Shown: piece by piece, positions 1 through 31,600 of the stretch
Layout of the letters: each line of letters opens with the position of its first letter
How positions within the stretch are numbered: the first letter of the stretch is position 1
Virus record (IMG/VR): IMGVR_UViG_3300030735_000039
DNA: 44,238 nt
Reading direction: 5' to 3' (one strand)
Source: a virus
The notes under the pieces: generated by a model
What the model was told of the DNA's origin: nothing
Database searches by the model: none
The model's input: only the letters and a program-made list of their open reading frames with translations
Translations under genes and position numbers: made by a program

Positions 1-99
1 GCCTTGGACTTGACGAGGTGGCATGGGCCGCAGATCAGGCCGAGGTTGTCGAGGTCCTCGACGGCTCCGCCCTCGAAGATCGGCGTGATGTGGTCCAGC
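1..99. repeat. Terminal overlap, identical to 44140..44238 (circular closure)
   Basis: Base-by-base comparison of the first 99 nt with the last 99 nt shows identity. An ORF continues in frame across the junction. Confidence 0.95.
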
Positions 100-353
100 T
101 CGTGCTGGTGCTCGCCGTCGGGGTCGTCGTCGAGGCTGGGCTGTTCGTCGCCGCATCGGTAGCAGCATCCATTGTCACGTGCTGTGACGTAACGCTTGAG
201 CGTGCGCCATCTGCCCGAGCTGATGCCGTACCTGCTGGCCTTGTCGTCCCTGCCTGCCCATGGGATGGGCTGGTGGTCGTCGCATCTGCCTCGCTTGGTA
301 GCGAAGACAGAGCATCGGGGGTCAGAGCACCGGGAGGGGGGCCGGGTAGGCAC
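1..353 (-). CDS. HNH endonuclease, 5' part (full gene = 353..1 joined to 44139..44097, 131 aa)
   Basis: Manual translation gives ...RCSDPRCSVFATKRGRCDDHQP...NGCCYRCGDEQPSLDDDPDGEHQHELDHITPIFEGGAVEDLDNLGLICGPCHLVKSKA. This contains the CxxC, H-N-H and CxxH motifs. The only in-frame start after the stop at 432..434 is GTG 353. The position just upstream of terS is typical of HK97-like cos phages. Confidence 0.85.
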   Translation of the reverse strand, partial: MPTRPPSRCSDPRCSVFATKRGRCDDHQPIPWAGRDDKASRYGISSGRWRTLKRYVTARDNGCCYRCGDEQPSLDDDPDGEHQHELDHITPIFEGGAVEDLDNLGLICGPCHLVKSK

Positions 354-667: not shown

Positions 668-967
668 TCAAGCGACGCTGCGTTGTCGGCGCTCCGCGAG
701 TAGGGCGGCAACGTCAGCCGAGGCGTACCAGGGGTACCGGGCGGTGCCTCCGGCCTTGGCGATGCGGCCTCGGTAGACGAGGTTGCGGAGGGCTCCGGGG
801 GTGATCCCGAGAGCGCGTGTCACGTCGGCGGCGGTGTAGTAGCCAGGGGGCGCTTCCATGCCTCCATGATGCCCAGGGAGGGAGGCGTCGAAGGGGAGGA
901 TGAGCCCTTGTTTCCCGGGCTCTGCTGCCTCCGATGCGGTGCCTCCCTTGCCTCCCTGACTGGCCAT
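668..967 (-). CDS. Helix-turn-helix DNA-binding protein (excisionase/MerR-like HTH_17 type)
   Basis: YYTAADVTRALGITPGALRNLVYRGRIAKAG...YPWYASADVAALL resembles excisionase-family HTH domains. The start is uncertain (967, or ATG 859). Confidence 0.65.
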   Translation of the reverse strand: MASQGGKGGTASEAAEPGKQGLILPFDASLPGHHGGMEAPPGYYTAADVTRALGITPGALRNLVYRGRIAKAGGTARYPWYASADVAALLAERRQRSVA

Positions 968-1040
968 TTGCGCAGGTCATGCACAGGGAGGCAGGTCGGG
1001 GAGGCTGGTAGGGAGAACTCCCCGGGATCCTGGCGCCTCC

Positions 1041-3164
1041 CTACTCGTCGAAGTCGTCCTCATCGTCGGTCGCGCGGTCGGCGATGGCTTCGGCGACGCG
1101 CTGTCGACTGACGTGCATGACGCCGCTGGTCTTGTACTCGCCGTGCCCGGCGTCGTCCAGGACGCGCTTCAGGTCGCGGAATGACCAGCCGTCGTACTCG
1201 CCCGGGTTGTGGTCGCCGAGCCGGTGCAGGACGTCTTGCGTGCGCAGCTTCGTCTCGTTGCCGAGGACGGTCAGGATGTCGGCGAGGTGGTCCGCCGGCG
1301 CGTAGGCGGTCACCTCCGGGTCCGCGGTTCCCTCGACCAGTCCCATGGCGCGCTCGACGACCGGGGTGACCTCGTCGATGCCCTTGTCGGGGTCGCGGGC
1401 GACGTAGTGGGCGCGGACCACCTCGAACGGCTTGCCGCTGAACCCCACGGTCACAGCCGTACCGACGTCCTCGCCGGGAATCAGCGTGGTCGCGGTGATC
1501 CCGGCCTTGTGTCGGCCGGAGCCGAGCAGCCCGTCATTGGCGACGTGGTCACCGACGGCGAACGCGACACGGTGGGAGGTATTGCGGGTGACGTCGCGCG
1601 GGAGGCTGTCGGCGGTCGGGGAGACGGTGACCCAGACGAGGGTGATGGCCGTCTTGCGGGCCTTCTTCATCACCTTGATGGCCAGTTCAGCGGCCTCTTT
1701 GCCGTACTCCTTGTGCATGAACAGCTCGTGGCACTCGTCGAACACGACGACCTTGGGCCGCATCCGCGGATCCTTCAGGGCCAGTTCGCGGGTGACCTTC
1801 GTGGCGCCGTCGCCGAGTTCCTCCAGCAGCTTGCCCCGCATCGTCACCTCGTCCCGCAGGCTGCGCAGGGCCTTCAGAGCGGCCTCGATGTCCTCGTCGT
1901 CGTCGCCCTTGACCAGCGTCTTCAGGCGGGGCTTCAGCGGGTCGTAGTCGGTGTTGTACGCCATGACGTACGCCTCGACGATGACGAGCGGGTCGAGGAT
2001 CGCACCGAGCAGCAGGGCGATGACCAGGGACGACTTACCCGAGCCCATGATGCCGCCGACCATGTAGTTGGCGGCCATGAGCTTGCCGATGATGGGCTCG
2101 CCGCGCTGGGAGACGGCGACGGGCACGCCCTTGAAGTAGTCCGTGACGCCCTCGGTGAGGAGCGGCCACGGCGGGACTGCGCCGGAGAGGGAGCCCTGGT
2201 CGGCGACCCACAGGTCGAGGACGCCGGGCTGCTTCGGGGGTTCGGTCGGCCACACCTCGACGGGCTTGCGCATGAGGTTGTGGGCGAGGACGTTCTTCTT
2301 CCCGGCGATCATCTCGACGGTGACGCCGAGCGGGAGTTGCAGCTGGGTGTGCCAGCCGTTCCCGGACCGGCTGGTCGGGGACACCCAGCGCGGCTGCCAG
2401 CCGTCCTTGATGGCCTTGTTGAGCGGGGCGATGCCGAGGTTGCCGAGCGCGCGGAGGATGGCGCCCTCGTCGGGGACGACGTCGCGCTGCTCGGGGTCGC
2501 CGGGCAGTGCCCAGGCCGGGGCGGTCTGCCGGTGCCGTCCGACGGCCCACACCCCGGCGAGGGCGATGAACGGCAGGGCGACGAGGAGCGGGTCCCAGAT
2601 GACGCCGGCGATGAATGCGACCCAGGCGACGAACTCGATGACGGTGGCGAGCGGGGTGAGGACGTCGCTGACGTCGTGGTTGGCCCAGGCGAGCATGATG
2701 CCGAGCAGCAGCAGGACGCCGGCCCCGGCGGTGGCGCCCATGAACAGGGCCTTCGGGGCGTTGATGGCCAGCTGGAGGAGTTCCATGCGCCGCCGGTGGC
2801 GGGACTGCCGGAAGATGTAGGCGCGCTGCTCCCAGTCACGGGCGACGTCTTCCTGACCTGCGGCTTCGGCGGCTCGCATCATGCGTTCGTGGCGGGCGGT
2901 GGTGCGGGAGTCCCAGGCCCGGCGGGTCAGCAGGCGGGCGCCGCCGACGACGTAGGCGCCGTGTCGGACGACGGCCCTGTAGGAGCCGTGCTCGCGGGCC
3001 TCGACGACGACGCGCCGCAGGTGGTCGATGCGGACGCGGCGGCGGGGCCGCAGCTTGTCCTCAACAACCGTCTCGGGGGCCGGGGCGGGCGCGGGGGCGA
3101 GTTTGAGGAGGGACACCTGCGGCTGGTGGTGTCCGTTGACGCGTTCCAGGGTCGTGTCCGTCAT
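1041..3164 (-). CDS. FtsK/SpoIIIE-family dsDNA translocase, TraB/TraSA-like (N-terminal membrane segments, P-loop motor, C-terminal winged-helix-like tail)
   Basis: Walker A is GGIMGSGKSS and Walker B is VVVFDECHELF. Hydrophobic helices are present near residues 140-215 (LFMGATAGAGVLLLLGIMLAW, VAWVAFIAGVIWDPLLVALPFIALAGVWAV). The tail is acidic and wHTH-like. GGAGAG lies upstream of ATG 3164. Confidence 0.9.
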   Translation of the reverse strand: MTDTTLERVNGHHQPQVSLLKLAPAPAPAPETVVEDKLRPRRRVRIDHLRRVVVEAREHGSYRAVVRHGAYVVGGARLLTRRAWDSRTTARHERMMRAAEAAGQEDVARDWEQRAYIFRQSRHRRRMELLQLAINAPKALFMGATAGAGVLLLLGIMLAWANHDVSDVLTPLATVIEFVAWVAFIAGVIWDPLLVALPFIALAGVWAVGRHRQTAPAWALPGDPEQRDVVPDEGAILRALGNLGIAPLNKAIKDGWQPRWVSPTSRSGNGWHTQLQLPLGVTVEMIAGKKNVLAHNLMRKPVEVWPTEPPKQPGVLDLWVADQGSLSGAVPPWPLLTEGVTDYFKGVPVAVSQRGEPIIGKLMAANYMVGGIMGSGKSSLVIALLLGAILDPLVIVEAYVMAYNTDYDPLKPRLKTLVKGDDDEDIEAALKALRSLRDEVTMRGKLLEELGDGATKVTRELALKDPRMRPKVVVFDECHELFMHKEYGKEAAELAIKVMKKARKTAITLVWVTVSPTADSLPRDVTRNTSHRVAFAVGDHVANDGLLGSGRHKAGITATTLIPGEDVGTAVTVGFSGKPFEVVRAHYVARDPDKGIDEVTPVVERAMGLVEGTADPEVTAYAPADHLADILTVLGNETKLRTQDVLHRLGDHNPGEYDGWSFRDLKRVLDDAGHGEYKTSGVMHVSRQRVAEAIADRATDDEDDFDE

Positions 3165-3250: not shown

Positions 3251-3424
3251 CTACTTGCTCTTGCGGCGGAGCGCCTGCTTCTCGATCCGCTCGACCTTGC
3301 GCTTCAGGTCGGACAGGTCGACGCCGTCACCGGCCAGGCCGCGCTTCGCCATCCGGGCGGTGAGGGCGGCGACGCGGAGCTTTTCGCCGGTGGTGAAGTC
3401 GCTGAACTTGATGTCGTCGGCCAC
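3251..3424 (-). CDS. Hypothetical small basic/coiled protein (57 aa)
   Basis: GTG 3424 is preceded by GAGGGAG. The product is VADDIKFSDFTTGEKLRVAALTARMAKRG...IEKQALRRKSK. Codon bias looks coding. Confidence 0.55.
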   Translation of the reverse strand: MADDIKFSDFTTGEKLRVAALTARMAKRGLAGDGVDLSDLKRKVERIEKQALRRKSK

Positions 3425-3504
3425 GGGGTCTCCCTCGGTTGTGGGCCGGGCTGTCCGGCCCCACCGCACCCCCGCGAACGTGCCGCGGGGGACGGAAGGG
3501 CAGG

Positions 3505-3828
3505 TCAGCGGCCCTTGCGCTGCATGTCGCGCCACATGTCCCGCAGGACGAGGACGACGATCGCGGCGACGCCGCCGAGGATGGCCAGCGCGAGGGAGGC
3601 GAACGCCAGGCCGATGGAGCCGACACACACCGCGCACGCGATGCCCATCCACTCGCCCGCGCTGCGGGGGGCCTTGTGGTCGTGCTGGCACTGCTGCTGC
3701 GGTACTTGGGCCTGCTGCTGCGTGGCCAGCTTCGCCAGCTCCATCGCGGCCATGGCCAGCTGGACGGCGGCGGTGTCGGTCTCGGCAGCCCGGACCGCCT
3801 GCTCGGCCTTGTCGAGGGCGTCGCTCAC
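3505..3828 (-). CDS. C-terminally membrane-anchored protein (107 aa), Spd-like position
   Basis: GTG 3828 overlaps the upstream stop (GTGA). The product has a Gln-rich middle and a C-terminal hydrophobic stretch GIACAVCVGSIGLAFASLALAILGGVAAIVVLVL. Confidence 0.6.
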   Translation of the reverse strand: MSDALDKAEQAVRAAETDTAAVQLAMAAMELAKLATQQQAQVPQQQCQHDHKAPRSAGEWMGIACAVCVGSIGLAFASLALAILGGVAAIVVLVLRDMWRDMQRKGR

Positions 3829-4001
3829 CGGGCCCACCCCCTGATGCGGCGGGTGATGCGCGGCCAGGCGATGATCCCGGCGGCGACCATGAGGACGACC
3901 GGCTGCGACATAAGCGCGACAGCCATGGCGAGGACGCCGGAGAGCAGCGAGGGGTAGACGACGAGGAGCCCGAGGAGGGCGCCGAAGATGAGGCGCATCA
4001 T
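3825..4001 (-). CDS. Small two-helix membrane protein (58 aa), Spd-like position; not in supplied ORF track
   Basis: Manual translation gives MMRLIFGALLGLLVVYPSLLSGVLAMAVALMSQPVVLMVAAGIIAWPRITRRIRGWAR. The ATGA overlap with the stop of 3998..5122 and the GTGA overlap with the next gene support it. Confidence 0.6.
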   Translation of the reverse strand: MMRLIFGALLGLLVVYPSLLSGVLAMAVALMSQPVVLMVAAGIIAWPRITRRIRGWAR

Positions 4002-5122
4002 GCGTATCCGCCTTCCATCGGCGTGGCCGGGGGCTCCGCCACGGTCTTCTTCGCCGCCCGAGAGAGAGCGGTCCGGACGTAGGGCTCGGCAACGACGAGG
4101 CGCCGGTGTTCGGCGATGTGCTCTGCGATCTCGCGGGCTGATGCGTCGGTGCCGAGAGCGGATGCGGCCTCGATCACGATGCCTTCCATCGTGAGGGGTT
4201 CGAGGGCCGGTACCGACCCGTTGACCTGCTGATGCGTGGGCGCATCCACCTGATGCGCTTCGTACTCGGCGGGCCGGTGGCCGAGGACCAGGGCGACCGC
4301 CACGGCGTCCACGACGACCCCGTAGTCGCCGAGCACGTGGGCGAGTTCGGCGGGGGGCGCATCAGGTCGCGCATCCGCCGCCAACCGGATCGCATCCGCG
4401 GGGTCCATCTCTGCGAAGCGTGCGCGCAGCACCTCTGTGGCGGAGGCCGTACGGGGCCGGGCGGGCGGCTCGATGGCCGGCGCCTTGCCGTACATTCCGC
4501 CGAGCGCGGTGTCCGCGCCCTCGGTGATGCGCACGCGCTGCACGTCGACCAGGGCCGCGCCGAGCTGGGCGTCACCGACCCCGACCTTCTTCGCGATGGC
4601 CCACGACTCTCTGAGTGCGTCCTCGCGGACTTCCTCGTCGGGGTGGTGGGCGGCGACGGCCTGGTGGTACGCCAGCTGCTGCACGGCGTCTGCGTTCCGG
4701 CGCTGCGCCTCGGCGTCGACGCCGGTCCGGTAGACGACGATCCGGCGGGCGATCAGGCCCAGACCCTCGGCAGCCCCGCTCATGGCGAGCGGGGTGATGG
4801 CGTACACGACGGCCTCGCGGACGCTGGTGGCGATCAGGACGCCGGTCACGCAGGCGCCGGCCGGGGCGAGCCACAGCCCGATCCGTACGGCGGCCGGGGC
4901 GGACTGCCCGAGCATCGTCAGGCCGAGCATGGTGAGCGCGAGGACCAGGGCGAGGCCCTCGCCGGCGGCGACGACACCGGCCGCGGTGGCCCCGCGGTGG
5001 AACTGCGCCTCCACGTTGGAGTACGTACCCCATGCGCCGAAGCCTCCGACGCCCAGCATGACGACGGCCGCAGCAGTGAGGACGGCGGTCTGGCCCTTGG
5101 ACAGTTCGCGACGGGTGCTCAC
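3998..5122 (-). CDS. Multi-pass membrane protein with long cytoplasmic C-terminal region (DUF2637/SpdB-like by position and topology; low-confidence family call)
   Basis: Four N-terminal hydrophobic helices (VLTAAAVVMLGVGGFGAW, GVVAAGEGLALVLALTMLGLTMLG, IGLWLAPAGACVTGVLIA, VVYAITPLAMSGAAEGLGLIA) are followed by about 230 soluble residues. GTG 5122 overlaps the upstream stop (GTGA). Confidence 0.7.
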   Translation of the reverse strand: MSTRRELSKGQTAVLTAAAVVMLGVGGFGAWGTYSNVEAQFHRGATAAGVVAAGEGLALVLALTMLGLTMLGQSAPAAVRIGLWLAPAGACVTGVLIATSVREAVVYAITPLAMSGAAEGLGLIARRIVVYRTGVDAEAQRRNADAVQQLAYHQAVAAHHPDEEVREDALRESWAIAKKVGVGDAQLGAALVDVQRVRITEGADTALGGMYGKAPAIEPPARPRTASATEVLRARFAEMDPADAIRLAADARPDAPPAELAHVLGDYGVVVDAVAVALVLGHRPAEYEAHQVDAPTHQQVNGSVPALEPLTMEGIVIEAASALGTDASAREIAEHIAEHRRLVVAEPYVRTALSRAAKKTVAEPPATPMEGGYA

Positions 5123-5778
5123 TGGTCATCACCCGGGCGGCGGTTCTCGGCGTGGCTGAGCTGCGAGGGCTGAGTACGCGGGCCGTCAACCCACGGGAAC
5201 GGGCGGATGCCCTGGGCGGCCTTGAAGACACGGATGGCGGTGCCAGCCTCGGCGTGGGGGAGGCCGTAGACGCGTCCGCCGTCGAGGCTGGCGAGGAGGC
5301 GGGCGCCGTGCTGCTCGCACCCGTCCGCGCCCGCGTTCTGGGCGTCGAGGACGGTGACGACGGGCGGGCCGTCGCACGGGGTGGGGTCGTCGCCGTGCGC
5401 GGCCGGGCAGCGGGCGCTCAACTCCATAGTCGCGGCTACGGCCTCGGTCGCGTCCTCGATCAGGTGGGCGTCGTCCCTGTGGTCCTGGGCGCGGCGGTCA
5501 GCGCTGCTCGCGTAGTCGTCGCGGCACAGCCGGTGCAGCTCGGTGACGGCCGGCTGCACGGTTTTGGTGTCCGGCTCGGCGCCGAGGGCGTGCAGCAGGA
5601 TGCGGATCGATTCGGAGAGGGCACCGTGGGCCTGGGCGTAGCCGAACTCGCCGAAGGTGCTGGTGTCGCTGTAGGCGGCGAGCATCTTCTGCGCGACGCG
5701 GATGGCGACGGTGAGGTCGCTGGGCTCGACAGCCCGAGGGATGGTGCTGCTCGGGGCAGCGGGCATGGAAAGATCCAT
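5119..5778 (-). CDS. Hypothetical protein (219 aa)
   Basis: A strong AAGGAGAA lies 8 nt upstream of ATG 5778. Codon bias looks coding. No family recognised. Confidence 0.65.
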   Translation of the reverse strand: MDLSMPAAPSSTIPRAVEPSDLTVAIRVAQKMLAAYSDTSTFGEFGYAQAHGALSESIRILLHALGAEPDTKTVQPAVTELHRLCRDDYASSADRRAQDHRDDAHLIEDATEAVAATMELSARCPAAHGDDPTPCDGPPVVTVLDAQNAGADGCEQHGARLLASLDGGRVYGLPHAEAGTAIRVFKAAQGIRPFPWVDGPRTQPSQLSHAENRRPGDDQ

Positions 5779-5885: not shown

Positions 5886-5937
5886 ACTCTACGCACGCCC
5901 ATGGACGGGTGGCAATACACCGTGCGAAGATTCGGCT

Positions 5938-6117
5938 ATGCCCTCCGTTCACAGGAACCCCGCGAAGACTTTCCGCCCCGATCCCGACCTGTACGAGCGG
6001 GCCAAAGGCGCGGTCGCCGAGGTCGGGTCGGACATGAACGGACACCTAGTCGCATTCCTTCGCTGGCTCACACACGAGACGGACGACCTTCCGCAGCGCC
6101 CCGAGCGCCCCGAGTAG
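5938..6117 (+). CDS. Ribbon-helix-helix (CopG/Arc/MetJ-like) small DNA-binding protein, 59 aa; not in supplied ORF track
   Basis: Manual translation gives MPSVHRNPAKTFRPDPDLYERAKGAVAEVGSDMNGHLVAFLRWLTHETDDLPQRPERPE. This fits a beta-strand, helix, G-x-D turn, helix layout. About 83% of third positions are G/C. The overlapping listed ORF 5901..6143 is in another frame and is Arg-rich. Confidence 0.6.
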   Translation: MPSVHRNPAKTFRPDPDLYERAKGAVAEVGSDMNGHLVAFLRWLTHETDDLPQRPERPE

Positions 6118-8003: not shown

Positions 8004-8062
8004 GGGTTCCTCCGTGGTGTGATGGGTGGAGGTCCGGGCCTGGTAGCAACAGGCCCGGACCG
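8004..8062 (-). repeat. Intergenic element copy B: hairpin 8032..8060 (11-bp stem, loop TTGCTAC on the mRNA strand) plus conserved CTCCAC...GGAGGAAC leader
   Basis: It aligns by eye with 9146..9198. Confidence 0.7.
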
Positions 8063-9145: not shown

Positions 9146-9198
9146 GTGTTCCTCCTTGGTGAGTGGAGGGCTGGGCCTGGTAGCAACAGGCCCGGCCT
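9146..9198 (-). repeat. Intergenic element copy A: hairpin 9171..9195 plus conserved leader
   Basis: It has the same loop, stem core (GGGCCTG/CAGGCCC) and downstream CTCCAC...AGGAGGAAC as 8004..8062. Confidence 0.7.
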
Positions 9199-10846: not shown

Positions 10847-11166
10847 TGCGGGGAGTGCGGGGACATGGCGCGAGTCCTGCGGGGACTTCAGACCGGTCCC
10901 GGGGTGGCGCTGATCAGTGGTTTTGCGGGGACGCGGGGACTTGCGGGGACTTGGGGAATCCCTTGATGCCGGAGAGCTTCAGAACTGATCCGTGATGACG
11001 TGCGGAATGCGCGATGCGCGATGCATGTGAGTCACGTGCGCTGTACGGGGGAGTGGGGCAGGTCCCCGCAGGTCCCCGCCTCCCCGCGTCCTCGCAGGTA
11101 GAGCCCTGTGCGGAGGTCTGTCGGAGTCCCCGCACAGGTCCCCGCGAAGTCCCCGCACTCCCCGCA
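10847..11166. repeat. Two facing arrays of a 9-bp iteron (TGCGGGGAC) around a unique core; candidate replication origin or regulatory array
   Basis: Plus-orientation copies start at 10847, 10856, 10878, 10924, 10932 and 10942, with a degenerate copy at 10951. Reverse-orientation copies (GTCCCCGCN/CTCCCCGCN) start at 11062, 11072, 11080, 11126, 11138, 11149 and 11158. The core 10960..11061 contains GCGATGC repeats and the near-palindrome CATGTGAGTCACGTG. Confidence 0.7.
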
Positions 11167-11176
11167 GATCGGCCGG

Positions 11177-13834
11177 TCACGACTCGTGCCGTCCAGTGCC
11201 GCGGTCGGCGTGGACCTCGACGCGCCACAGGTTCTGCTTCCTGTGGCTGTCGACGACCATCACGACCTTGTGGGTGCCGAAGTAGCGGCCCTGACGGGCC
11301 TTGAGCCAGATGCCCAACTGATTTGCACTCGGCGGCTCATCGCCCTTGCGCGGCACGTGGCTGGGCAGGCCTTTGATGAGGGCCCCCGTGGCCAAGGGCT
11401 CGCCGCCGTACGTCTCCCGCCACATCTCCAGGAAGAGCGCCCACTCTTGGAGTTCGTCGTCCTGGTCGCGCGCCTCGGCGCGGTCGGCCATCCAGCCTTC
11501 GACCCCGATGAAGTCGAGTAGGCCGGCGATGAGGCTGGCCCAATGGCTGTAGTCGCCCTTACGGACGCGGACTTGGGGCGCCCCCGCGGCGACCCAGGCC
11601 CGCACCAACGTCACCAGGGCCGCGACCAGAGTCGAGGCGTTGTGGCGCAGCCACGGGCGGAGGTCGCCGACGGTGAAGTTGTCGCGCTGGTCGGGGTCGG
11701 GGCAGTCGGGGTCAAGGCGGACCCAGAGCACGCGTCGGCCGTTGTCCCCGCCGGTGCGCAGCGCGTTGCCGGTGACGATCCACAGCCGGTCGTTCGGCAT
11801 CGTCACCTTCGAGGTGGCGCCGAGGACGCGGTCGCCCCATACCTCGGAGGTCAGCAGCGCGGACAGGACCGGGCTCTTGATGACGTAGCCGTTGGGCAGG
11901 TTGTCGAGGACGACGACGGGCTGTCCGGTGCCGTACAGCTGCGTGGTGATCGACTTCCTGAGTTCGGTGTCGTTCTCGGGCCAGGCCGTGTCAGCGATGC
12001 CGTAGCAGTGCCGGAAGATGTCCTTGAGCAGGCTCTTTCCGGACCCCGCAGCCGTCGCGGTGAGCACGAACATCGGAGTCGCACCGTGGAAGTAGGGGCG
12101 GAGGATCGGGGTGAGTAGGGCGCCGAGGAAGTGCGCGCGATCGCTGGCAGCGACCCACGGGAAGTCCTTCAGGACCTGGTCCAGGACGATGGCCTTCGCC
12201 CGGTCGAGGCTGCCCCGGGTCACCTGCGGAGCGAGGCGGCGCAGCGGTACGCGCGGTTCCAGGTAGAGGCCCGTCGCGCGGTCGTATCCGAGCGAGTCGA
12301 GCAGAGACCCGTCGGACCGGATCACGGGTGAGGTGACGATGCCGCGCAGAATCGGGAGCGGCCACGTCTTCCGGCCGAGGATCGTCGAGCAGCTCTTGGG
12401 CATGAGCAGCTCGCGTTCTTCCTCCAGCTGCTCGGTGAGCGGGTTCCGCTTCAGGGTGAAGCTGGACACGTGGTCGGCGAGGTATGCCCGGAGGTTGTCG
12501 GCGCCGAGCTGCTGGACGATCGGGTCGTCGTTGTCGTCGCGGTAGACCCAGCAGGGGCCGCCTGATCGGGTGTACAGGTCGGGCAGGCGGCCGTCCTTCA
12601 TGAGCTGGAGGACGCCGTCGATCCCGTCGGCTTCGTTGGTGATGTCCAGCTCGGGGCGGGAGGGGACGGAGCGCAGTTGCGGGCCGCCCTCGAACCCCTC
12701 TTGCGCGTCCGGGGCGTGCTCGGAGTCGAGCGCCGAGGAGCCATCGGCGAAGTGCTGTCCGGGCACAGAGGACAGGCGTCGGCGAGGGGACTCGGTGCCG
12801 TAGCCGCGCCCGCGCAGTTCGGCAGCAGCCCGCCTGAAGTGCTCGGCGTTGGTGCCGCCCTGCGTCAGGTGGGTGTACGCGGCGAACTTGTCGTACGGCG
12901 TTTCCGACTCGAACGTCGTCGACGTGGTGAAGACGTACAGACGGTCTCGGTCCTGGGCGTGTCCGGTCGTTGCCGAGATCCCCTGGTTCTTCCCCTTGCG
13001 CCGCCAGTACGTGGTGCTACCGCGCGTGAAGATCGGATCGAACTCGTCACCGATGATCTCCGGCCAATCGGTGCGGGCCTCGTAGTCGTCGCCTGGCCGG
13101 ACGCCGCCCTCGGGAAGCTCTCGTTTCGGACGCGGCGCGGTCTTCGCCTTGTCCTCGCGAGGCATCGCGTCGACCATCTGGCAGACGGCGTGCACTGCCG
13201 TAAGCGTGTCCGCGTCGAGGGTCGGGATACTGCTCGGCCCGCCGGCCAGGCGAACGTACGGCCGTCCGGACGCGTGGACCGGGCCACAGGACGGCTCGAC
13301 CAGCCCGTATCCCCCCTCCCCGCGCGTTTCGATGAGGACTCGCACGATCTTCGAGTTGGGTTTCTCCGCGACGCGCTGTCGCTCCTCCGCGGTGTACTCG
13401 TCCTCGCGAGCCAGACGACTGGCCAACTTCGTGTTGCCAGCAACTCCGTCCTCGACACGGATCCGGTAGTGCAGGCCACCGGAGGGAGACTCGCTTGCCC
13501 ATCCGGTGGCGATGCTCTGCCACACATCACCGAGGCCGGAGCCCTCCATGATTTCGGTGACCTCGTCGAGGACTCCTTCGCGAACGGCGAGACCCTCGAA
13601 CTCCAGCATCTCGACGTTCCCTGACACTCCGCCGTAGACCACGGCGATGCCACGGGGCCGGTCGCCGCTGAACCAGGCGTCGTGCTCAGCGGGGGTACTG
13701 CGGTTGATCTTGTACTGAAGCCAGGACACGGCTGGCTTCTTTGTCCCGTCCGCCTTGATCGGGAGGACGCACAGGCCAGCGTCGTGCAGCTCGCGGGCGG
13801 AAGCCCGGAGGTCGGCGGACTGTGAGTCGGTCAA
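11177..13834 (-). CDS. Bifunctional primase-polymerase (Prim-Pol N-domain) fused to a P-loop NTPase/helicase-like C-domain
   Basis: The N-terminus LHDAGLCVLPIKADGTKKPAVSWLQY...GIAVVYGGVSGNVEMLEFE is typical of Prim-Pol domains. Walker A is TAAGSGKS and Walker B is PVVVLDNLPNG. TTG 13834 overlaps the upstream stop (TTGA) and follows GGGGAG. Confidence 0.85.
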   Translation of the reverse strand: MTDSQSADLRASARELHDAGLCVLPIKADGTKKPAVSWLQYKINRSTPAEHDAWFSGDRPRGIAVVYGGVSGNVEMLEFEGLAVREGVLDEVTEIMEGSGLGDVWQSIATGWASESPSGGLHYRIRVEDGVAGNTKLASRLAREDEYTAEERQRVAEKPNSKIVRVLIETRGEGGYGLVEPSCGPVHASGRPYVRLAGGPSSIPTLDADTLTAVHAVCQMVDAMPREDKAKTAPRPKRELPEGGVRPGDDYEARTDWPEIIGDEFDPIFTRGSTTYWRRKGKNQGISATTGHAQDRDRLYVFTTSTTFESETPYDKFAAYTHLTQGGTNAEHFRRAAAELRGRGYGTESPRRRLSSVPGQHFADGSSALDSEHAPDAQEGFEGGPQLRSVPSRPELDITNEADGIDGVLQLMKDGRLPDLYTRSGGPCWVYRDDNDDPIVQQLGADNLRAYLADHVSSFTLKRNPLTEQLEEERELLMPKSCSTILGRKTWPLPILRGIVTSPVIRSDGSLLDSLGYDRATGLYLEPRVPLRRLAPQVTRGSLDRAKAIVLDQVLKDFPWVAASDRAHFLGALLTPILRPYFHGATPMFVLTATAAGSGKSLLKDIFRHCYGIADTAWPENDTELRKSITTQLYGTGQPVVVLDNLPNGYVIKSPVLSALLTSEVWGDRVLGATSKVTMPNDRLWIVTGNALRTGGDNGRRVLWVRLDPDCPDPDQRDNFTVGDLRPWLRHNASTLVAALVTLVRAWVAAGAPQVRVRKGDYSHWASLIAGLLDFIGVEGWMADRAEARDQDDELQEWALFLEMWRETYGGEPLATGALIKGLPSHVPRKGDEPPSANQLGIWLKARQGRYFGTHKVVMVVDSHRKQNLWRVEVHADRGTGRHES

Positions 13835-16257: not shown

Positions 16258-17937
16258 ATGCCGTCAGCCCGCCGCGCAGGGAGTGTCTACAAACGCTGCG
16301 AGTGCCGCGGTACCGACGGCAAACTGCTGGGCAACAAGTGCCCGAAGCTCACAAAGAAGAACCACGGCGCCCCAGCACTCCGCCAGGAACTGCCGCCCAG
16401 CGCCGAGGGAACACGCCGGACTTTCCGGCGAACCGGATACGAGACTGTGACGAAGGCCCAGGGCGACCTGTCCCGCCTGCAAGCCATCCTCGCGCTCGCC
16501 GGTGACGACGCTGCCGAACAGCAGCGCGTCGGTGATCTCCTCGCCGACATCAACAAGAGGCGTGCGGACATCCCCGAGACCGCTGAGGTGCAGCGACGGC
16601 TCGGCGTCGGAGTCCCGCTCGACGGCAAGATGACGGTTGGCGACTGGCTCGACCACGTCATGGCCAACAAGGCCACGCGCACCACCACGAACCACGGTTA
16701 CAACAGCCACATCCGCGTCCACCTGAAGCCCGCACTCGGGCACCTGCGCCTGGACCGTCTCAGCGTCGGCCACTGCCAGGACATGTTCAACGCGATCGAC
16801 GACCGCAACGACCTCATCCGGGCCGAGAACGCCGCTCGCCACGAGCAGGTCGCCCGCTGCAAGCGCGGGAAGCCGGGCGCCCCGAAGGCGAAAGAGCGCG
16901 CGCAGCTGGCAGCCGAGCGGGCCAAGCTCGCCGAGATGCCGCCCTTCCGTCGCATTACCGGCCCGGCTACGAAGCAGGCGATCCGCCGCACCCTCCGCAT
17001 GGCCCTGAACAAGGCCATCGGCGCACAGCTCATCACCTTCAACGCCGCGAAGCACGTCGAGCTGACGTCCGCCGCCCGGCCCAAGGGACTGCTGTGGACG
17101 GCCGAGCGGGTGGCCCGCTGGGAAGAGACGGGAGAGAAGCCGGGCCCGGTCATGGTGTGGACGCCCGCCCAGCTCGGCGCGTTCCTCGACGCGGCCGAAG
17201 GCGACCGGCTGTACGCGTTCTTCCACCTGATCGCCCACCACGGCCTGCGCCGCGGCGAGGGCGTCGGCCAGGGATGGGGCGACTTCTCGCCGGAGCGCAA
17301 GGAGATCCGAGTGTCCGCCGAAATCGTGGTGGACGGCTGGACGCCGATCGAGACGGCCCCGAAGACCGACGGGTCCGTGGGCATCGTGAAGGTCGACGCG
17401 GAGACCGTGCGGGTCCTGCTGGCCCACCGCGAGCAGCAGCTGCGGGAGCGCGACGCGTGGAACGCACACGCCGCCGAGCAGCGCGCGGCCGGCGAGGACG
17501 TAGCCGACTGGACTGACACCGGGAAGATGTTCGCCGCCGAAGACGGGGCGTGGCTCCATCCGGACGTCGTGTCCAAGGCGTTCCGCAGGATCGCGGACGG
17601 CGCCGGCCTACCGCCCATCAACCTCCGGGACCTCAGGCACGGAGCGGCAGCCCTGGTGAAGGCAGGCGGCGGGGACATCCACGACGCCAAGGTGAAGCTG
17701 CGGCACGGAACCATTCAGCTCACCTCGGACACCTACATGGAGCTGTTCGAGGAGTACGAGGACGAGCTGACGGAGAAGGCCGCCGCCGCGGTTCCTCGCG
17801 CCCGCCGATCACGCGAAGAGCCCCCTGCTCCGGTCGCTGTACCGGAGCAGGGGGCCAGCACGTCGCAGCCAGCAGACGCGGTTGATGACGGGATCACCGT
17901 ACGGGCCAGCACTGACAACGACGAGCCCTCGGCGTAG
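16258..17937 (+). CDS. int: Tyrosine recombinase/phage integrase (560 aa)
   Basis: The catalytic signature is spread as HHGLRRGEG (Arg), LRDLRHGAAAL (H-x-x-R) and LRHGTIQLTSDTY (His...Tyr). The N-terminus SVYKRCECRG...KCPKL resembles an arm-binding domain. ATG 16258 is preceded by GGGAG. Confidence 0.92.
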   Translation: MPSARRAGSVYKRCECRGTDGKLLGNKCPKLTKKNHGAPALRQELPPSAEGTRRTFRRTGYETVTKAQGDLSRLQAILALAGDDAAEQQRVGDLLADINKRRADIPETAEVQRRLGVGVPLDGKMTVGDWLDHVMANKATRTTTNHGYNSHIRVHLKPALGHLRLDRLSVGHCQDMFNAIDDRNDLIRAENAARHEQVARCKRGKPGAPKAKERAQLAAERAKLAEMPPFRRITGPATKQAIRRTLRMALNKAIGAQLITFNAAKHVELTSAARPKGLLWTAERVARWEETGEKPGPVMVWTPAQLGAFLDAAEGDRLYAFFHLIAHHGLRRGEGVGQGWGDFSPERKEIRVSAEIVVDGWTPIETAPKTDGSVGIVKVDAETVRVLLAHREQQLRERDAWNAHAAEQRAAGEDVADWTDTGKMFAAEDGAWLHPDVVSKAFRRIADGAGLPPINLRDLRHGAAALVKAGGGDIHDAKVKLRHGTIQLTSDTYMELFEEYEDELTEKAAAAVPRARRSREEPPAPVAVPEQGASTSQPADAVDDGITVRASTDNDEPSA

Positions 17938-17985: not shown

Positions 17986-18157
17986 CCTGCTGGCCCGGTG
18001 CTGGCCCGAAGGCCACGCAAGAGCGCGATACGAGACGGCACGAGACACGGTGAAGACTCGAGAATTTTGGAGCCGGAACCTAGTCTGACCTGGGGTCGAC
18101 ATCGACGGACGCGCCGACGTGATACGAGCCGGTACGAGCCGCCTTGGGCAGTCCGCA

Positions 18158-18203
18158 GACTTTTAATCCATTGGTTGTGGGTTCGAGTCCCACAGGGCCT
18201 ACC
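18158..18203 (+). other. 3' portion of a tRNA-Lys(UUU) (anticodon loop to discriminator), the presumed attP core
   Basis: The segments read CTTTTAA loop, TCCAT, TGGTT, T-arm GTGGG-TTCGAGT-CCCAC, and acceptor AGGGCCT-A. The spacing is canonical, but no matching 5' half (D-arm or acceptor 5' strand) is present upstream. Confidence 0.7.
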
Positions 18204-18207
18204 GAAT

Positions 18208-18242: not shown

Positions 18243-18335
18243 AGGTCGTTTTCGTACCGTCTCGTGTCGTCCTGCTGGCCCGCTGCTGGCCCGAAATCCT
18301 GGGTGCATGGTGCGGCCTGGTGAGTGTAAGAAGCG

Positions 18336-19760: not shown

Positions 19761-19851
19761 ATCTGAGTACAGGTAGTGCTTATCTGTACTCAGATTGTCG
19801 CCGAGATTGGCGCGGGTCAAGCGGGACGGGAGAGTATGTGTACTCAGATTG
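19761..19851. promoter_or_regulatory. Three copies of an operator-like motif (CTGTACTCAGAT) in the divergent promoter region
   Basis: ATCTGAGTACAG at 19761..19772 and CTGTACTCAGAT at 19784..19795 form a perfect 12-bp inverted repeat with an 11-bp spacer. A 17-bp direct repeat TAT(C/G)TGTACTCAGATTG lies at 19781..19797 and 19835..19851. Confidence 0.65.
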
Positions 19852-20636
19852 ACTCGATCATTCGAAGTGGGGGTGTCTCGGTGGCACAGCCTGAGTACCT
19901 GCGAATCGCCGCCGACCTGCGGCGACGCGTCTCCTCCGGCGAGTACGGGCCCGGCGACCAGATCCCCACGCTCCCCGCCCTCTGCCGGGAGTACGGCGTA
20001 TCCGACACCACCATCCGCAGCGCGCTTCGCCTTCTCGCCAACGAGGGACTCATCGAGACCCGGGCCCGCGCCGGCACCCGCGTGCGCCCCCGGCCACCCG
20101 TCCACCGCATGGCCGCCGACCGCTACCGGTCCAAGCCCGGCGCCAAGTCGACGCCCTTCACCCGCGACCAGGGCATCGGCTGGTCCGAGTACCGGCTCGA
20201 CAAGCGGTTCGAGAAGGTGCAGGCGGACGCGGAGTTGGCGGCGCTCTTCGAGTGCGAGGTGGGGGAGCGGCTCCTCGCCCGGCACTTCGTGTTCTACGAC
20301 AACGACCAGCCCACCCAGATGAGCACGTCCTACGTGCGGTGGTCCGACGTCGAAGGGACGCCAGTCGCCGACCCCATCAGCGAGCCGTGGCCGGGCGGCA
20401 CCCGGGCGCAGATGGCGAGCCTCGGTATCCGTGTCACCAGGATTACGGAGTCGTTCACCGCAGGCATGCCGACCGAGCTGGAGGCGGCGACGCTACGGAT
20501 CGGCGCCGGCGTGCCGGTGCTGCGGTACACCCGGCGGCACATCGCTGACACGGGCCGCATTGTCGAGGTGGCTCACCCGATCGTGCGCCGCGGCGACACC
20601 ACCGTGGTGGACTTCGCCATCGACCTCGACGACTGA
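19836..20636 (+). CDS. GntR-family transcriptional regulator, HutC subfamily (wHTH + UTRA effector domain)
   Basis: The N-terminus EYLRIAADLRRRVSSGEYGPGDQIPTLPALCREYGVSDTTIRSALRLLANEGLIETRARAGTRV is canonical for GntR. The C-terminal roughly 170 aa look UTRA-like. The start is ambiguous: ATG 19836 (GGGAGAG upstream) or GTG 19881 (GGGGG upstream). The track start 19776 is unlikely. Confidence 0.9.
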   Translation: MCTQIDSIIRSGGVSVAQPEYLRIAADLRRRVSSGEYGPGDQIPTLPALCREYGVSDTTIRSALRLLANEGLIETRARAGTRVRPRPPVHRMAADRYRSKPGAKSTPFTRDQGIGWSEYRLDKRFEKVQADAELAALFECEVGERLLARHFVFYDNDQPTQMSTSYVRWSDVEGTPVADPISEPWPGGTRAQMASLGIRVTRITESFTAGMPTELEAATLRIGAGVPVLRYTRRHIADTGRIVEVAHPIVRRGDTTVVDFAIDLDD

Positions 20637-28681: not shown

Positions 28682-31600
28682 TCATCCCTTCTTCCCGGCG
28701 CGCTTGGTGCGGCGGACGTCGTCCAGGGCGTCGTCGACCCGGTCGGACACGTAGGCCCGCAGCACCGTGCCGTCGTCGACGACCAGGTACAGCGGCCGAC
28801 CGTCCAGGCCCGTGGCCGAACCCCGGGCAGCCGCGCCGGAGGTGACCGGCACGACGCCGACGGGCACCGCGTCGGAGGCCATCCGTTCTGCGGCGGAGAC
28901 GACCGCCGGACCGGCCGCAGCCATCCCGGCGACCAGACCCGCCCCGAGGTCGGCGCCCGCCTGCTCGCCCTTGCGGGACGGGCTGTGTGCGTCGATGCCC
29001 TTCTTGGAGCGGATCGCCTTCACTGCGGCGGCGCCGAGCCTGGCCATCGCGGACTCGATCTCGGCCTCTTGCTTGAGCAGCCCGGTCAGGAACCCCTTGG
29101 CCGCCGCGTCCCCGGCGTCGTACATGCTGTCGGCCATGGTGCGGCCGTAGCTGGTCGACAGCTTCGCCCCCGACTTGGCCATGGCGTTCAGCTGCTTGAT
29201 CTGCCCGGCGTTCGCCCCGGACAGGACACCGGCCAGCTGACTGTCCGGGCCCATCGCCACCAGTTGCCCGATCAGGTCCTGGGACAGGCCCTTCTTGGAC
29301 AGCAGCGCGATCTGAGCCTCCCGGGCGCGCACCGTTCCCTGCCGGTCGCTCATCCCGGACAGGACGTCGCCGATGCTGGTGGCCTCCGCCAGGTTGCCCA
29401 GGCCCAGGAAGTCGGCGGCGGTCTGCTTCTGGTCGGTCGCGGCGGTCTTGGCCTGCTCCAGCCGGGAACTGACCGCGTCGCGCTTCTTGGCCATCGCCTG
29501 CAACTTGGCCGACGCTGCCGTGACCGAGGCCGCCATCGCCTTGCCGCCGACCCCGGCCGCCTTCAGATCCTTCACCAGCTCCTTGGAAGCCTTGGCGATG
29601 TCGGACGCCGAACCGGTCAGGGACTTGGTGAAGTTGGTCAGGTCGCCGGGGATGTCCTTACGGGCCTTGGCGCGGGCGGACGTGGTGCCCTTGGCGAACC
29701 CTCGGGCGCCGATGCCCTCCCACATCCGCATGGAGTCACGGTGGTTGAACACCTCCGCACTTCCGCTGCCGAACTTCACCAGCTCGGGGCCGCGTTCGCC
29801 CACCCAGGCGACCTCACCCGGGCGGGGCTTGCCGCCGTCGGCGTAGCCCTTGGCCGCGAACCCGTACCAGTCCGTGAACAGGGCGTCCTTGTACGAGCGG
29901 GCCCGCGACCCGACGATCACCCCGTCCCCGCCCCTCGACTCGACGTTGACGCCGTTGAGCGTGCCCGCCGTGTGGCCCACCCCGCTGTTGGTGATGCCGA
30001 TCATGAACGGCGAGCGCTTGCCCTTCACCCAGCCGGACGGGGCGGTGGCCCCGGAGAAGCTGCCGGTGGCCCACCGGCGGTGCGCCTTCTGCCCACGGAT
30101 CACCGACTCGATCGCCGACATGAACCCGGAACAGTCCCAGCTCGGGTCACCGTTGCCGCCCCACTGGTACGGCTTGCCGTTCTGCGTGCGCGCCCAGGAC
30201 AGGGCCGACTTGTAGCCCTTGCCGCCGACGCCGGCGGCCTCCAGCTTGCCGTCGGCCTTGGCGGAGTAGCCCACGATCTGTTTGATCATCCGCTTCGGGA
30301 TACCGGTGATCATGTCCCGGTACAGGGACGGCGATCCGCTGATCTTCTCGATCAGCGGCTTCACCACGGCGTTCAGACCGGCCTCGGCGGAGGCCTTGAC
30401 GCCGTCCTTGAGCCACGCCACACCGGACTCGGCCAGGTCCGTGCCCTTGTCCCAGGCCTTGCCCACCCAGCCGAAGATGCCGCCCTCGGCGAACCCCTGC
30501 CCCTGGAACGGGCGCAGCGACTTGCCGTGCATGGCGGCCCGGTTCACGGCGAGCAGGCGCGAGCGCTCGTACGGGTCGCGCATCGCCTCCGAGACGGCGA
30601 TGCCCTCGCCACGGCGCAGCGGCACCAGCTGGTCGTCGCCCTGCCGGTACGAGGACTGGCCAGCCAGGATGCCGCCGCGGGCGAACCCCTCGGGGTGGAA
30701 CTCCTTCAGGGTGGGGGCGCCGAAGGCCTTGGCCACCTTGTTCCAGGTGCCGACGATGCCCTTGTTGTAGACGGTGTTGATCACGAAGCTGATCGGCTTC
30801 TTCGCGAGCTGGCCGACCTTCCCGAACTGCTTTCCGATGGTGTCCTTGGCGTCGGTGAACGCCTGCCCGAAGGCCTTCGCGGCGGCCTTCGCGGCGTCGA
30901 CGGGCGGCTTGATGCCCTTGTCGTACAGCCACTTCGCCACCGACGCGATGCCCCGGAACGCCGGCAGCAGGGCCGTCTTCCACAGCCAGGTCGCTCCGGC
31001 GCCGACCGCCCGGAAGCCGGTCTTGACCAGGCCGAAGTACAGCTTCACCCCGGTCCACCACAGGCGGAACCCGCCCACGATCAGATCGAGGGTGGGTGAG
31101 ATCGCGACGTCCCACAGCCACACCGCGCCCGCGCCGACGGCCCGGAAGCCTGCCGAGACCAGGGAGAAGTACAGCTTGACCCCGGTCCACCACAGGCGGA
31201 AGCCGCCCACGATCCAGCCGATCACGGGAGAGATCGCCTTCTGCCACAGCCAGACCGCGACCGCGCCGAGCGCGTAGAAGATCACGCCCACGGCCGTCGC
31301 GTAGATCTTCACGGCGGTCCACCACCATTTGAAGGCGGTGACGATGAAGCCCACCACGGGCTTGAGCACGACGTTCCACAGCCACAGGGCCGCCACCGAG
31401 ACTGCCTTGAACGCGCCTTGCACGACGTTGCGGAACGTCTCGGACTTCTTGTAGGCGACGACGAGGGCGACGCCGAGCGCGACCAGGGCGATCGCGATCA
31501 GCACGAAGGGGTTCAGCGCCATGACCGCGTTGAGGACCGCCTGCGCGGCAGCGAACCCGCTCGTCACCGCAGTGCCGACGAGGATCGCCGCCCGGTACGC

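Follow-up and report, generated by a model that had tools for sequence, protein, structure and literature searches.

A candidate TraB-clt DNA transfer module in the genome of a temperate HK97-type siphovirus

What is a translocase of the kind used in plasmid conjugation doing in the genome of a bacteriophage? The question is raised by a traB-like gene at positions 1041-3164 of the IMG/VR virus record IMGVR_UViG_3300030735_000039, whose whole stretch of 44,238 nucleotides is called the window below. Streptomyces grow as compartmented, multicellular mycelia, and the spread of phages and prophages within them is poorly understood. A first-pass annotation had read the gene as the double-stranded DNA (dsDNA) motor of Streptomyces conjugative plasmids and of the integrative and conjugative elements of actinomycetes (AICEs), set inside a complete phage genome. 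Our preferred reading, to which we give a probability of about 0.6, is that traB encodes a working TraB-type conjugative translocase which, with a repeat array downstream and membrane proteins upstream, would form a self-contained, AICE-type dsDNA transfer module on a temperate siphovirus. The data on which this reading rests are the family identity and domain layout of the protein, purifying selection on its gene, the strict linkage and conservation of the array, and the occurrence of the same module in AICEs.

The translocase and its relatives

The traB-like gene lies on the minus strand, which the first-pass annotation had left unstated, and its G+C content by codon position (0.72/0.44/0.94) is typical, marking the open reading frame (ORF) as a real high-GC gene. 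The ORF and its codon bias, matches in Pfam, PHROG and PDB, a structure model and a tree together predict that the product, of 707 amino acids (aa), is a membrane-anchored FtsK/SpoIIIE-type dsDNA translocase. The motifs that had been picked out earlier are all in the translation, namely the GSGKS of a Walker A motif (GIMGSGKS, G371-S378; 2031-2054), a Walker B motif (VVVFDE, with D476/E477; 1734-1751) and an acidic C-terminus (DDEDDFDE), and residues G371, G376, K377, D476 and E477 are invariant in an alignment of 101 sequences. The proposed N-terminal membrane domain was also recovered, as two or three hydrophobic segments at aa 139-211 (2532-2750, minus strand) with Kyte-Doolittle peaks of 2.13-2.17 at aa 140-158, 172-190 and 182-200. 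An AlphaFold model built on 101 homologues (mean predicted local distance difference test score, pLDDT, 78) has continuous helices at aa 105-211, and by hydropathy and model alike the anchor is N-terminal to the motor, as in a conjugative Tra.

The model lays the protein out as long N-terminal helices (46-211), an alpha/beta domain (233-320), a RecA-like core (340-600) and a C-terminal domain (626-706). The motor, aa ~340-600 (1365-2147, minus strand), has the FtsK/SpoIIIE RecA fold with both Walker motifs that is expected of a conjugative Tra. It matched the Pfam family FtsK_SpoIIIE exactly at the cut-off (24 bits, E 3e-5), PHROG 1358 "FtsK/SpoIIIE-like" over the motor only (1.5e-19, aa 264-550), and the FtsK motor in PDB by sequence (7e-5) in an alignment that covers both motifs. 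By structure, Foldseek aligned the model to the FtsK motor over ~400 columns (E 8e-15, TM-score 0.60-0.68), and the next matches were the conjugative coupling protein TcpA and the EccC/EssC ATPases. The C-terminal domain, aa 624-707 (1044-1295, minus strand), is modelled as helix-strand-helix-helix-strand-helix plus the acidic tail at pLDDT 76-90; it is homologous to the C-termini of AICE Tra proteins and is a candidate repeat-recognition domain. The gene is under purifying selection, with dN/dS of 0.18-0.31 against five relatives and of 0.175 between two phage-borne copies.

Among 50,697 phage genomes, tblastn with TraB found weak, motor-only matches (E 5e-6 or weaker, 23-30% identity) in Gilgamesh, WXIN and cluster J mycobacteriophages, whereas among plasmids it returned the Tra proteins of small actinomycete plasmids at E 5e-55 to 6e-72, with up to 90% of TraB covered; the TraB proteins of pSVH1 and pSG5 matched at 1e-13 and 3e-14. 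The best plasmid matches are AICE-like circles that encode GntR, SpdB or DUF2637, DUF6257, FtsK, Prim-Pol, RepAM or DUF3631, helix-turn-helix (HTH) and Int proteins. In a neighbour-joining tree of 336 motor columns with 100 bootstraps, the window's TraB pairs at 100% with the copy in a chromosomal prophage, L005 (L-numbers label fetched loci that carry relatives of the window's module). This pair is sister to the Tra of a Streptomyces albicerus AICE and a viral contig (100%), inside a clade (100%) that also holds Saccharopolyspora, pCM32, Frankia and a 92-kb viral contig. The next group outwards is pPaSha2 and an AICE plasmid, followed by the NBC_00859 clade and by pSVH1 with pSG5, while annotated phage FtsK-like proteins (433-637 aa, 22-24% identity) cluster apart. 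A motor phylogeny had been proposed earlier as a check, and both the tree and the contrast in tblastn group the protein with plasmid and AICE Tra rather than with other FtsK-like proteins. Since it lies outside the phage FtsK-like cluster and has a membrane domain, the earlier reading withstood these two of the findings that its author had named as counting against it.

The kinship extends beyond the motor. Two large Streptomyces Tra clades have invariant residues in common, spread from R67 to L669 through the N-terminus, motor and C-terminus, and are therefore homologous over their full length and not in the motor alone. The family comprises 1,842 clusters at 50% identity with E <=1e-3, of which 345 reach E <=1e-30. 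With the Tra of L048, a textbook AICE of S. albicerus whose gene set is GntR, NUDIX, DUF2637, DUF6257, Tra, Prim-Pol and Int, the window's protein shares 76% identity, and relatives in a clade at ~32-35% identity also sit in textbook AICEs. These comparisons support the assignment of the translocase as a conjugative-type Tra, not a generic phage FtsK-like protein.

The genome that carries it is that of a phage. Positions 1-99 are identical to 44140-44238, a 99-bp overlap from which the unit is taken to be circular, with 44,139 bp. Its G+C content is ~70% and the minus strand carries nearly all genes. Pfam matched HNH, TerS (Terminase_4), TerL, portal, S78 protease, HK97 capsid, tail tube, tape measure, beta-helix fibre and amidase proteins, and the lysis, tail, head and packaging genes of an HK97-type siphovirus occupy 21054-43765 (minus strand); with the overlap, this virion set bears out the description of a complete phage genome. 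The virion and packaging region is 71-98% identical to a prophage in Streptomyces sp. ATCC 21386, and the homologous prophage is part of a Streptomyces contig of 9.95 Mb; the deposited phage genomes include no close relative of the window. Read from its genes, with a full virion set and an integrase on one complete genome, the window is a temperate HK97-type siphovirus. A single FtsK-like Tra appears to be its transfer function, as in AICEs, which span ~9-24 kb and lack virion genes. With 44,139 bp and a full head, tail, lysis and packaging set, the window is not an AICE in the strict sense.

The repeat array past the traB stop codon

Loci called clt are sets of short repeats to which TraB or TraA binds and which lie at the 3' end of tra or beside it (PMC4447253, PMC3583192), and a search for such repeats had been suggested by the first-pass annotation. 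We found a clt-like array of GGGAGG(C) starting at the traB stop codon (870-1043, minus strand), ~170 bp long with 7-9 copies in both orientations. On the minus strand a copy over the stop codon is followed by the palindrome GGGAGTTCTCCC, the pair GCCTCCC-N6-GCCTCCC, a conserved GACCTGC, the unit AGGGAGGC-A-AGGGAGGC, a variable stretch of ~45 bp and CGCCTCCCTCCC. An unbiased scan for clustered 8-mers across the window gave two signals, GTCCCCGC, taken up with the replication genes below, and AGGGAGGC; 6 of the window's 21 GGGAGGC copies lie within 165 bp from the traB stop codon. As a positive control, the same scan recovers the known clt of pSVH1, with five copies of GACCCGGA from 16 bp past the traB stop, and in pSG5 and pCM32 it detects analogous clusters directly behind tra. 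The pSVH1 TraB recognition sequence (TRS) GACCCGGA was rejected as the site used in the window, where it has two copies only, not clustered.

Because the single-genome statistic does not discriminate, the case for the array rests on its conservation across genomes. Of 41 loci with TraB at least 65% identical, L015 ends at a contig edge and was left out; all 40 of the others, with downstream sequence, have 5-9 GGGAGG/CCTCCC copies and the palindrome no more than 250 bp past the stop, over a background of 0.1-0.4 copies per 250 bp. We aligned the region from 12 and then 37 distinct relatives. The order is conserved: first an optional copy over the stop codon, then the palindrome GGGAG(T/A)TCTCCC, GCCTCCC-N6/7-GCCTCCC, GACCTGC, AGGGAGGC-N-AGGGAGGC, the variable ~45 bp and CGCCTCCCTCCC. 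Mean pairwise identity among the 37 sequences is 96% in repeat columns (32 of 58 invariant) and 53% in spacer columns (6 of 128 invariant): the repeat array is under strong constraint. An RNA structure was rejected as the basis of this constraint, there being no compensatory pattern and the variant copies in L017 not being the ones that would pair; Rfam had no matches in the window.

The array also reaches beyond phages. It is present in the bona fide S. albicerus AICE, and the same architecture recurs in a 13.5-kb plasmid (L001) and a Kitasatospora AICE (L057), in which TraB is only 32-35% identical and there is no terminase. A blastn search of all plasmids with the 196-bp array region matched nothing but intergenic stretches in L001 and in an S. 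cellulosae plasmid of 16.4 kb. In an S. rimosus AICE (L056, 11295-11430) the architecture is kept, with every copy now GATGGAG/CTCCATC and the palindrome GATGGAGAACTCCATC. Its TraB and that of L001 are 43% identical in the last 90 aa and 78% elsewhere, with a 6-aa insertion in the predicted wing, which suggests that recognition domain and sites changed together; C-termini do diverge faster in general. More distant Tra clades have repeats of their own in the same place, CTATCGATAGC in L053, CTCACTTCC in L044 and CCCGGGCG in pCM32. The gene past the array varies (HTH; DUF6221 in L004; XRE in L048; others in L001 and L056) and the array stays at the traB stop. In the reverse direction, the pattern GGGAGWTCTCCC-N4-9-CCTCCC-N5-9-CCTCCC, scanned across 2.9 million viral contigs, gave 16 matches, each located downstream of an equally oriented traB homologue at a distance of 10-50 nt; two belong to the L001 clade. 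Judged by this distribution, the array belongs to traB, not to the phage. Short repeats thus stand at the 3' end of tra, clustered at the canonical clt position and common to AICEs, and these computational findings support the array as a candidate clt.

More than 120 intact, full-length clusters with 72-93% identity to TraB occur in a large protein database, all from Streptomyces and several on 40-44-kb contigs. Terminase or portal genes lie a few kb downstream of traB on the same strand in the window and in L005, L009-L014, L017, L022, L027, L030-L032, L035, L037, L041 and L042. A convergent tape-measure gene lies 0.1-7 kb downstream in L019, L020/L046, L023, L024/L047, L026, L028, L029, L034, L039 and L043. 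The context is of AICE type in L036/L048 and L038, and the remaining loci are too short to classify. At least three terminase types occur in the group with downstream terminases (TerL_ATPase/nuclease, Terminase_6N, and a phrog_9/phrog_19179 type). As only L005 shares the window's packaging and head genes, the module is a mobile cassette, carried mostly by prophages with different backbones and occasionally by AICEs. Both bona fide AICEs and prophages, the latter with at least three terminase types, carry the module, from which it follows that it moves between the two, and comparison of these loci is clear evidence for an exchange of whole transfer modules between AICEs and temperate phages. 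More distant Tra genes also stand beside virion genes, in pPaSha2 of Pseudonocardia and on the 92-kb viral contig. The module is common, being found in dozens of Streptomyces species, and the hypothesis of transfer is therefore directly testable.

A separate observation concerns about ten Streptomyces genomes in which the tra-clt module is convergent to the tape-measure gene and does not precede a terminase, a second placement of the cassette in prophages.

Neighbouring genes, replication and integration

Reading along the minus strand, the order is a promoter-like site, genes for proteins of 219, 374, 58 and 110 aa, DUF6257, TraB, the array, HTH_17, HNH, TerS and TerL. The promoter-like site (5886-5915, minus strand) is a weak sigma-70-like match upstream of the string from the 219-aa gene to traB (TTGCCA-18-TAGAGT, 9/12; one site where 0.4 are expected). 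The 219-aa protein (5119-5778, minus strand), first past this site, has homologues of 45-53% identity in several relatives and no match in family searches. The 374-aa protein (3998-5122, minus strand) has three to four N-terminal membrane helices by hydropathy and belongs to phrog_16651 (2.4e-45). It is followed on the same strand by a 58-aa protein with two predicted membrane helices (3825-4001), conserved in L005, L033 and others, and by a 110-aa protein with one C-terminal membrane helix, also by hydropathy (3505-3837), which has homologues of 43-90% identity at the same position in most relatives. Directly upstream of traB is the DUF6257 gene (3251-3535, minus strand; Pfam 1.8e-24 in the last 55 aa, start probably internal), and DUF6257 followed by Tra is a pairing found too in the AICEs and AICE plasmids L001, L054, L056 and L048.

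The small membrane proteins that the first-pass annotation had called Spd-like do exist, and no homology of theirs to SpdB, SpdB2 or DUF2637 was detected. For the 374-aa protein, BLAST against pSVH1 SpdB2, the L001 SpdB and DUF2637 returned nothing, and hhalign gave a probability of 1.7%, so that it was rejected as an Spd homologue; SpdB2 itself has no Pfam family. In relatives, the same slot holds DUF2637 (L004 and L048) or SpdB_N (L046, by Pfam). Since slot and topology agree without detectable homology, "Spd-like" denotes here an analogy of position and topology. AICEs have Spd and NUDIX (Pif) genes; no NUDIX protein was found among the ~30 window proteins scanned, and relatives carry DUF2637, SpdB_N or NUDIX in the corresponding slots. 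Partial homologues of the 374-aa protein (aa 72-226, 38-47% identity) occur in Streptomyces phages, among them TP1604, YDN12, Xkcd426 and phiSAJS1, none of which appeared among the TraB matches.

Past the array lies a small HTH_17/MerR-like DNA-binding protein (668-859, minus strand; Pfam HTH_17 2.3e-4, PHROG 2474 1.5e-7) with a probable start at MEAPPGYY; the longest ORF of this gene runs to 967 and overlaps the array. An HTH_17 gene follows traB in most relatives, not all. The 5' part of the HNH endonuclease gene (1-353, minus strand; Pfam HNH 2.1e-7) comes next, crossing the circular junction to a stop at 44097, with TerS and TerL beyond.

A GntR/UTRA regulator (19881-20636, plus strand; Pfam GntR 5.9e-19, UTRA 8.5e-16) is encoded ~15 kb from traB, and the suggestion that a GntR protein acts as the Kor repressor of tra did not survive closer inspection. 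Besides its distance, the regulator is 23-33% identical to plasmid TraR/Kor proteins, a similarity at family level only, and its putative operator ATCTGAGTACAG occurs only at its own promoter, other 8-mer copies (5170 and 7947) falling short of the full site. Three copies of this 12-bp operator precede the gene at 19761-19849, two of them as an inverted pair, and are likely an autoregulatory GntR operator. A divergent ORF at 5938-6117 was tried as an alternative repressor and rejected, as it was found in one relative only.

An 885-aa Prim-Pol replicase (11177-13834, minus strand; Pfam Prim-Pol 4.4e-7) is 35-37% identical to the plasmid replicases of pCM32 and L044, and its homologue in L004 carries Prim-Pol and DUF927. 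Next to it is the other signal of the 8-mer scan, an iteron array of ten exact GTCCCCGC, five per strand (10857-11156). Arranged as inverted copies with 8-12 bp spacing, they lie on either side of a core richer in AT, catgcatcgcgcatcgcgcat, in the interval from the end of the Prim-Pol gene to the start of the helicase gene. The relative L004, with a 93% identical TraB, has eight copies of GGTACGCA instead, in the same place after Prim-Pol, and the array is absent from L005, a relative with a DnaB/IstB replication module; it was on both counts rejected as a TraB site. Because it tracks the replicase, we read it as a set of origin iterons, probably the site from which the Prim-Pol replicon replicates; RepAM binds comparable 8-bp repeats (PMC2440964). 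AICEs replicate by RepSA, RepAM or Prim-Pol, and the gene content supports the view that a Prim-Pol replicon with adjacent iterons is AICE-like. The AICE-like gene set of the first-pass annotation therefore stands for Tra and the Prim-Pol replicon and falls as regards a tie between the two, since a close prophage relative uses DnaB/IstB instead. Two further repeat sets were seen in L001: eleven copies of CCGCTACC right after its RepAM/DUF3631 gene (11439-11750), a likely origin, and six copies of CCTAGGAC in intergenic DNA by its GntR gene (1658-1960), a likely Kor operator.

A tyrosine integrase (16258-17937, plus strand; Pfam Phage_integrase 7e-6, Phage_int_SAM_3 4e-5) and two HTH_17 Xis-like proteins are encoded, as are one helicase and one C5 methylase by Pfam; the integrase, Xis-like proteins, Prim-Pol replicase and GntR regulator reported earlier are thus all there. 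Just downstream of the integrase gene, a sequence like the 3' half of tRNA-Lys(UUU) (18150-18205, plus strand), read directly from the sequence and not called as a whole tRNA, is a candidate attP core. On either side (17987-18012 and 18272-18297) are repeated CTGCTGGCCCG..GCTGGCCCGAA and ACGAGAC motifs. The core with arm-type integrase sites is a likely attP, so that the combination of Int, Xis and tRNA-gene integration that marks AICEs has its counterpart here in the tyrosine integrase, the HTH_17 proteins and a tRNA-Lys 3' fragment by int. This tRNA-Lys-like stretch is also the sole DNA match of the window to a deposited phage, TurkishDelight (85%), which has no annotated feature there.

Two other repeats were seen. 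A 39-nt direct repeat (8020-8058 and 9157-9195, 90% identical) with the hairpin GGGCCTGGTAGCAACAGGCCC brackets the C5 cytosine methyltransferase gene, and may be a terminator or the mark of a cassette insertion. The tape-measure gene holds a 132-bp tandem duplication (30980-31243, 79% identical).

Transfer, competing explanations and known systems

Under the preferred reading, the module would be co-expressed with the upstream genes of the same direction, as gene order suggests, and the promoter-like site at 5886-5915 may add to this. TraB would anchor in the membrane by its helices at aa 140-210 and form a hexameric, FtsK-like ring, whose C-terminal domains would dock on the GGGAGG(C) repeats of circular phage DNA or of an excised prophage. 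The motor could then pump unprocessed dsDNA through a septal cross-wall or a hyphal contact into the neighbouring compartment or mycelium, where the genome would integrate at a tRNA-Lys gene, replicate from its Prim-Pol origin or enter the lytic cycle. The phage would gain a second, capsid-free route of spread. The binding of the repeats by TraB, the transfer of DNA and the barrier that is crossed are what we infer. It is possible, if on balance somewhat doubtful, that true "conjugative phages" make up a large family of integrating Streptomyces siphoviruses, which use a complete AICE-type TraB-clt system with GGGAGG(C) repeats for virion-free transfer of naked dsDNA from one hypha or mycelium to another and trade this module with AICEs.

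Several findings weigh against this reading. The winged-helix fold of the C-terminus is unconfirmed, a single-sequence model of that domain alone reaching pLDDT 63 with weak winged-helix matches in Foldseek, the best at E 0.44; nor did a profile search or a single-sequence fold search match it to FtsK gamma, a candidate that was dropped. Clustering of the repeats within the single genome is not significant by an overlapping k-mer statistic, shuffled sequences reaching clusters of 5-6, and the repeats could bind another conserved protein of the module, such as DUF6257 or the HTH protein encoded downstream. No Spd homology was detectable in the upstream membrane proteins, and no Kil-Kor partner was found at the tra locus, where no GntR gene is adjacent. 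An adjacent GntR Kor is frequent among plasmids and not strictly defining. Barring that Kor and the unconfirmed C-terminal fold, the translocase shows each trait of a conjugative Tra that can be examined in its sequence.

The module may act only inside the infected or lysogenic mycelium, an alternative already raised by the first-pass annotation, with TraB docked on the same repeats and moving phage DNA across septa during lytic growth or into prespores, so that each compartment or spore obtains a copy, and never to other individuals. Thoma et al. 2015 proposed that SpdB2 homologues on the actinophages phiC31 and VWB might aid the spread of phage DNA (PMC4447253), and TraB and Spd proteins of pSVH1 drive intramycelial spreading (PMC4447253); here, the module reads in the same direction as the upstream replication genes, and most members of the window's TraB clade are phage-borne. 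Against a purely internal role, a bona fide AICE, an element known to live by transfer between mycelia, uses a 76% identical module. Sequence alone does not separate the two uses, and we consider an exclusively intramycelial one less likely than the preferred reading. The position of the array, directly upstream of the HTH gene and ~0.5-1.7 kb upstream of HNH, TerS and TerL, and the likeness of GGGAGG to a ribosome-binding sequence would also suit an operator, a late promoter or a packaging site (cos or TerS binding) in place of a TraB dock, with TraB in another role or as passive cargo. Yet the array keeps to the traB stop while the downstream gene changes to DUF6221 in L004, XRE in L048 and others in L001 and L056, it occurs in AICEs and AICE plasmids without a terminase, and it is invariant across at least three terminase types. 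Its copies face both ways, and the palindrome, with a 5-bp stem and a 2-nt loop, cannot form an RNA hairpin. A control or packaging site is on these grounds quite improbable.

Least probable of all is that the module is an inert passenger, be it an AICE or part of one that ended up in a prophage or a chimera made in assembly. The exchange of modules between AICEs and phages would allow for such an event, and in L047, which may be a remnant, a tape measure is the only phage gene seen within 10 kb. However, no second integrase or att site stands beside the module, and the same in-line position recurs in many different phages, including the prophage on the 9.95-Mb contig. The low dN/dS, the more than 120 intact clusters and the strong constraint on the array likewise speak against a passenger.

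If the preferred reading is true, a phage would spread in two ways, as particles and by direct DNA transfer through hyphal contacts or septa, which would change models of host range, lysogen spread, receptor-loss resistance and horizontal gene flow in antibiotic producers. For a large Tra clade of AICEs and phages, the array offers a candidate clt whose repeat is defined; according to the literature, the archetypal AICE pSAM2 has no known clt (PMC9513070). L001 and L056 form a natural specificity-swap pair, GGGAGG to GATGGAG, with which one could map the reading of DNA by the C-terminus of TraB. Exchange of the module bears on the idea that AICEs descend from plasmids and phages (PMC2440964), and a module traded both ways would blur the line between AICEs and phages. 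Already known are TraB-clt conjugation in plasmids and AICEs, FtsK-like genes in actinophages, SpdB2-like genes in phiC31 and VWB, and the plasmid-phage pZL12. In the searchable literature we found no description of integrating siphoviruses with an AICE-clade Tra, of the GGGAGG(C) array as a candidate clt or as common to phages and AICEs, of the switch from GGGAGG to GATGGAG, or of how common the arrangement is.

The FtsK-like genes of actinophages (Gilgamesh gp10, LittleE gp198 of cluster J, WXIN; PHROG 1358) share the motor core with the window's TraB and differ beyond it: at 22-24% motor identity and 433-637 aa, their proteins match within aa 222-597, leaving the N-terminal ~220 aa and the C-terminal domain unmatched. 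The TraB of pSVH1 is likewise a membrane-anchored, FtsK-like hexameric pump with repeats right after the tra stop, and 8-bp repeats (TRS GACCCGGA) are read by its C-terminal winged helix according to PMC4447253 and Vogelmann 2011 as cited there. The pSVH1 order of SpdB2 (409 aa, four helices), a small protein and TraB parallels the window's large membrane protein, small proteins and TraB. Unlike the window, pSVH1 has a GntR regulator, TraR, divergent from its spd operon and a rolling-circle replicon, and its TraB, at 27-28% identity (E 1e-13), belongs to another clade with another repeat sequence. In pWTY27, clt spans the last 16 bp of traA and 159 bp downstream, where 7-bp direct and inverted repeats are footprinted by TraA (PMC3583192). 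This is the layout of the window's array, although the repeats differ (TGACACC, CCCGCCC) and pWTY27 is a theta-replicating plasmid, not a phage.

Closer in kind is pPaSha2 (L002) of Pseudonocardia alni, a circular 41.9-kb element deposited as a plasmid that encodes a capsid, protease, portal, terminase, holin, Bet recombinase and integrase. After its DUF2637 gene comes that of an FtsK-type Tra, which belongs to the superclade of the window's protein and is 33% identical to it. By its gene content it is a phage-plasmid-like element with a conjugative-type translocase. It comes from another genus, its Tra falls in a subclade with an AICE plasmid, and no GGGAGG array follows tra. The AICE tra modules themselves (L048 in S. 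albicerus, the L001 plasmid of Streptomyces sp. NBC_00859, L056 in S. rimosus and L057 in K. aureofaciens) have Tra proteins homologous to the window's over their full length, at 76% identity for L048 and 32-35% for the L001 clade. DUF6257 is annotated directly upstream of Tra in L048, L001 and L056, not in L057. These AICEs share with the window the downstream array architecture, a Prim-Pol replicon, an Xis-like HTH protein and a tyrosine integrase. Unlike them, the window has a virion, lysis and packaging set in 44 kb as opposed to ~13-18 kb, a partial tRNA as its candidate attachment site, no NUDIX gene, no GntR gene divergent from the tra operon, and a protein of another family in the Spd slot.

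A dual lifestyle has a precedent in Streptomyces in pZL12/phiZL12, a plasmid-phage shown by experiment, with virions and a conjugal transfer locus (Zhong et al. 2010, J Bacteriol 192:3747, as cited in PMC3583192, PMC4487206 and PMC7157519). pZL12 was absent among the plasmid matches listed for TraB in tblastn, 23 of the 63 plasmid records lying outside that listing. The accounts that cite pZL12 describe it as a singleton, an extrachromosomal plasmid-prophage of 90 kb that carries ParAB and a traA-traC locus, whereas the window, at 44 kb, integrates, has a tra-clt module of AICE type and belongs to a large family of phages.

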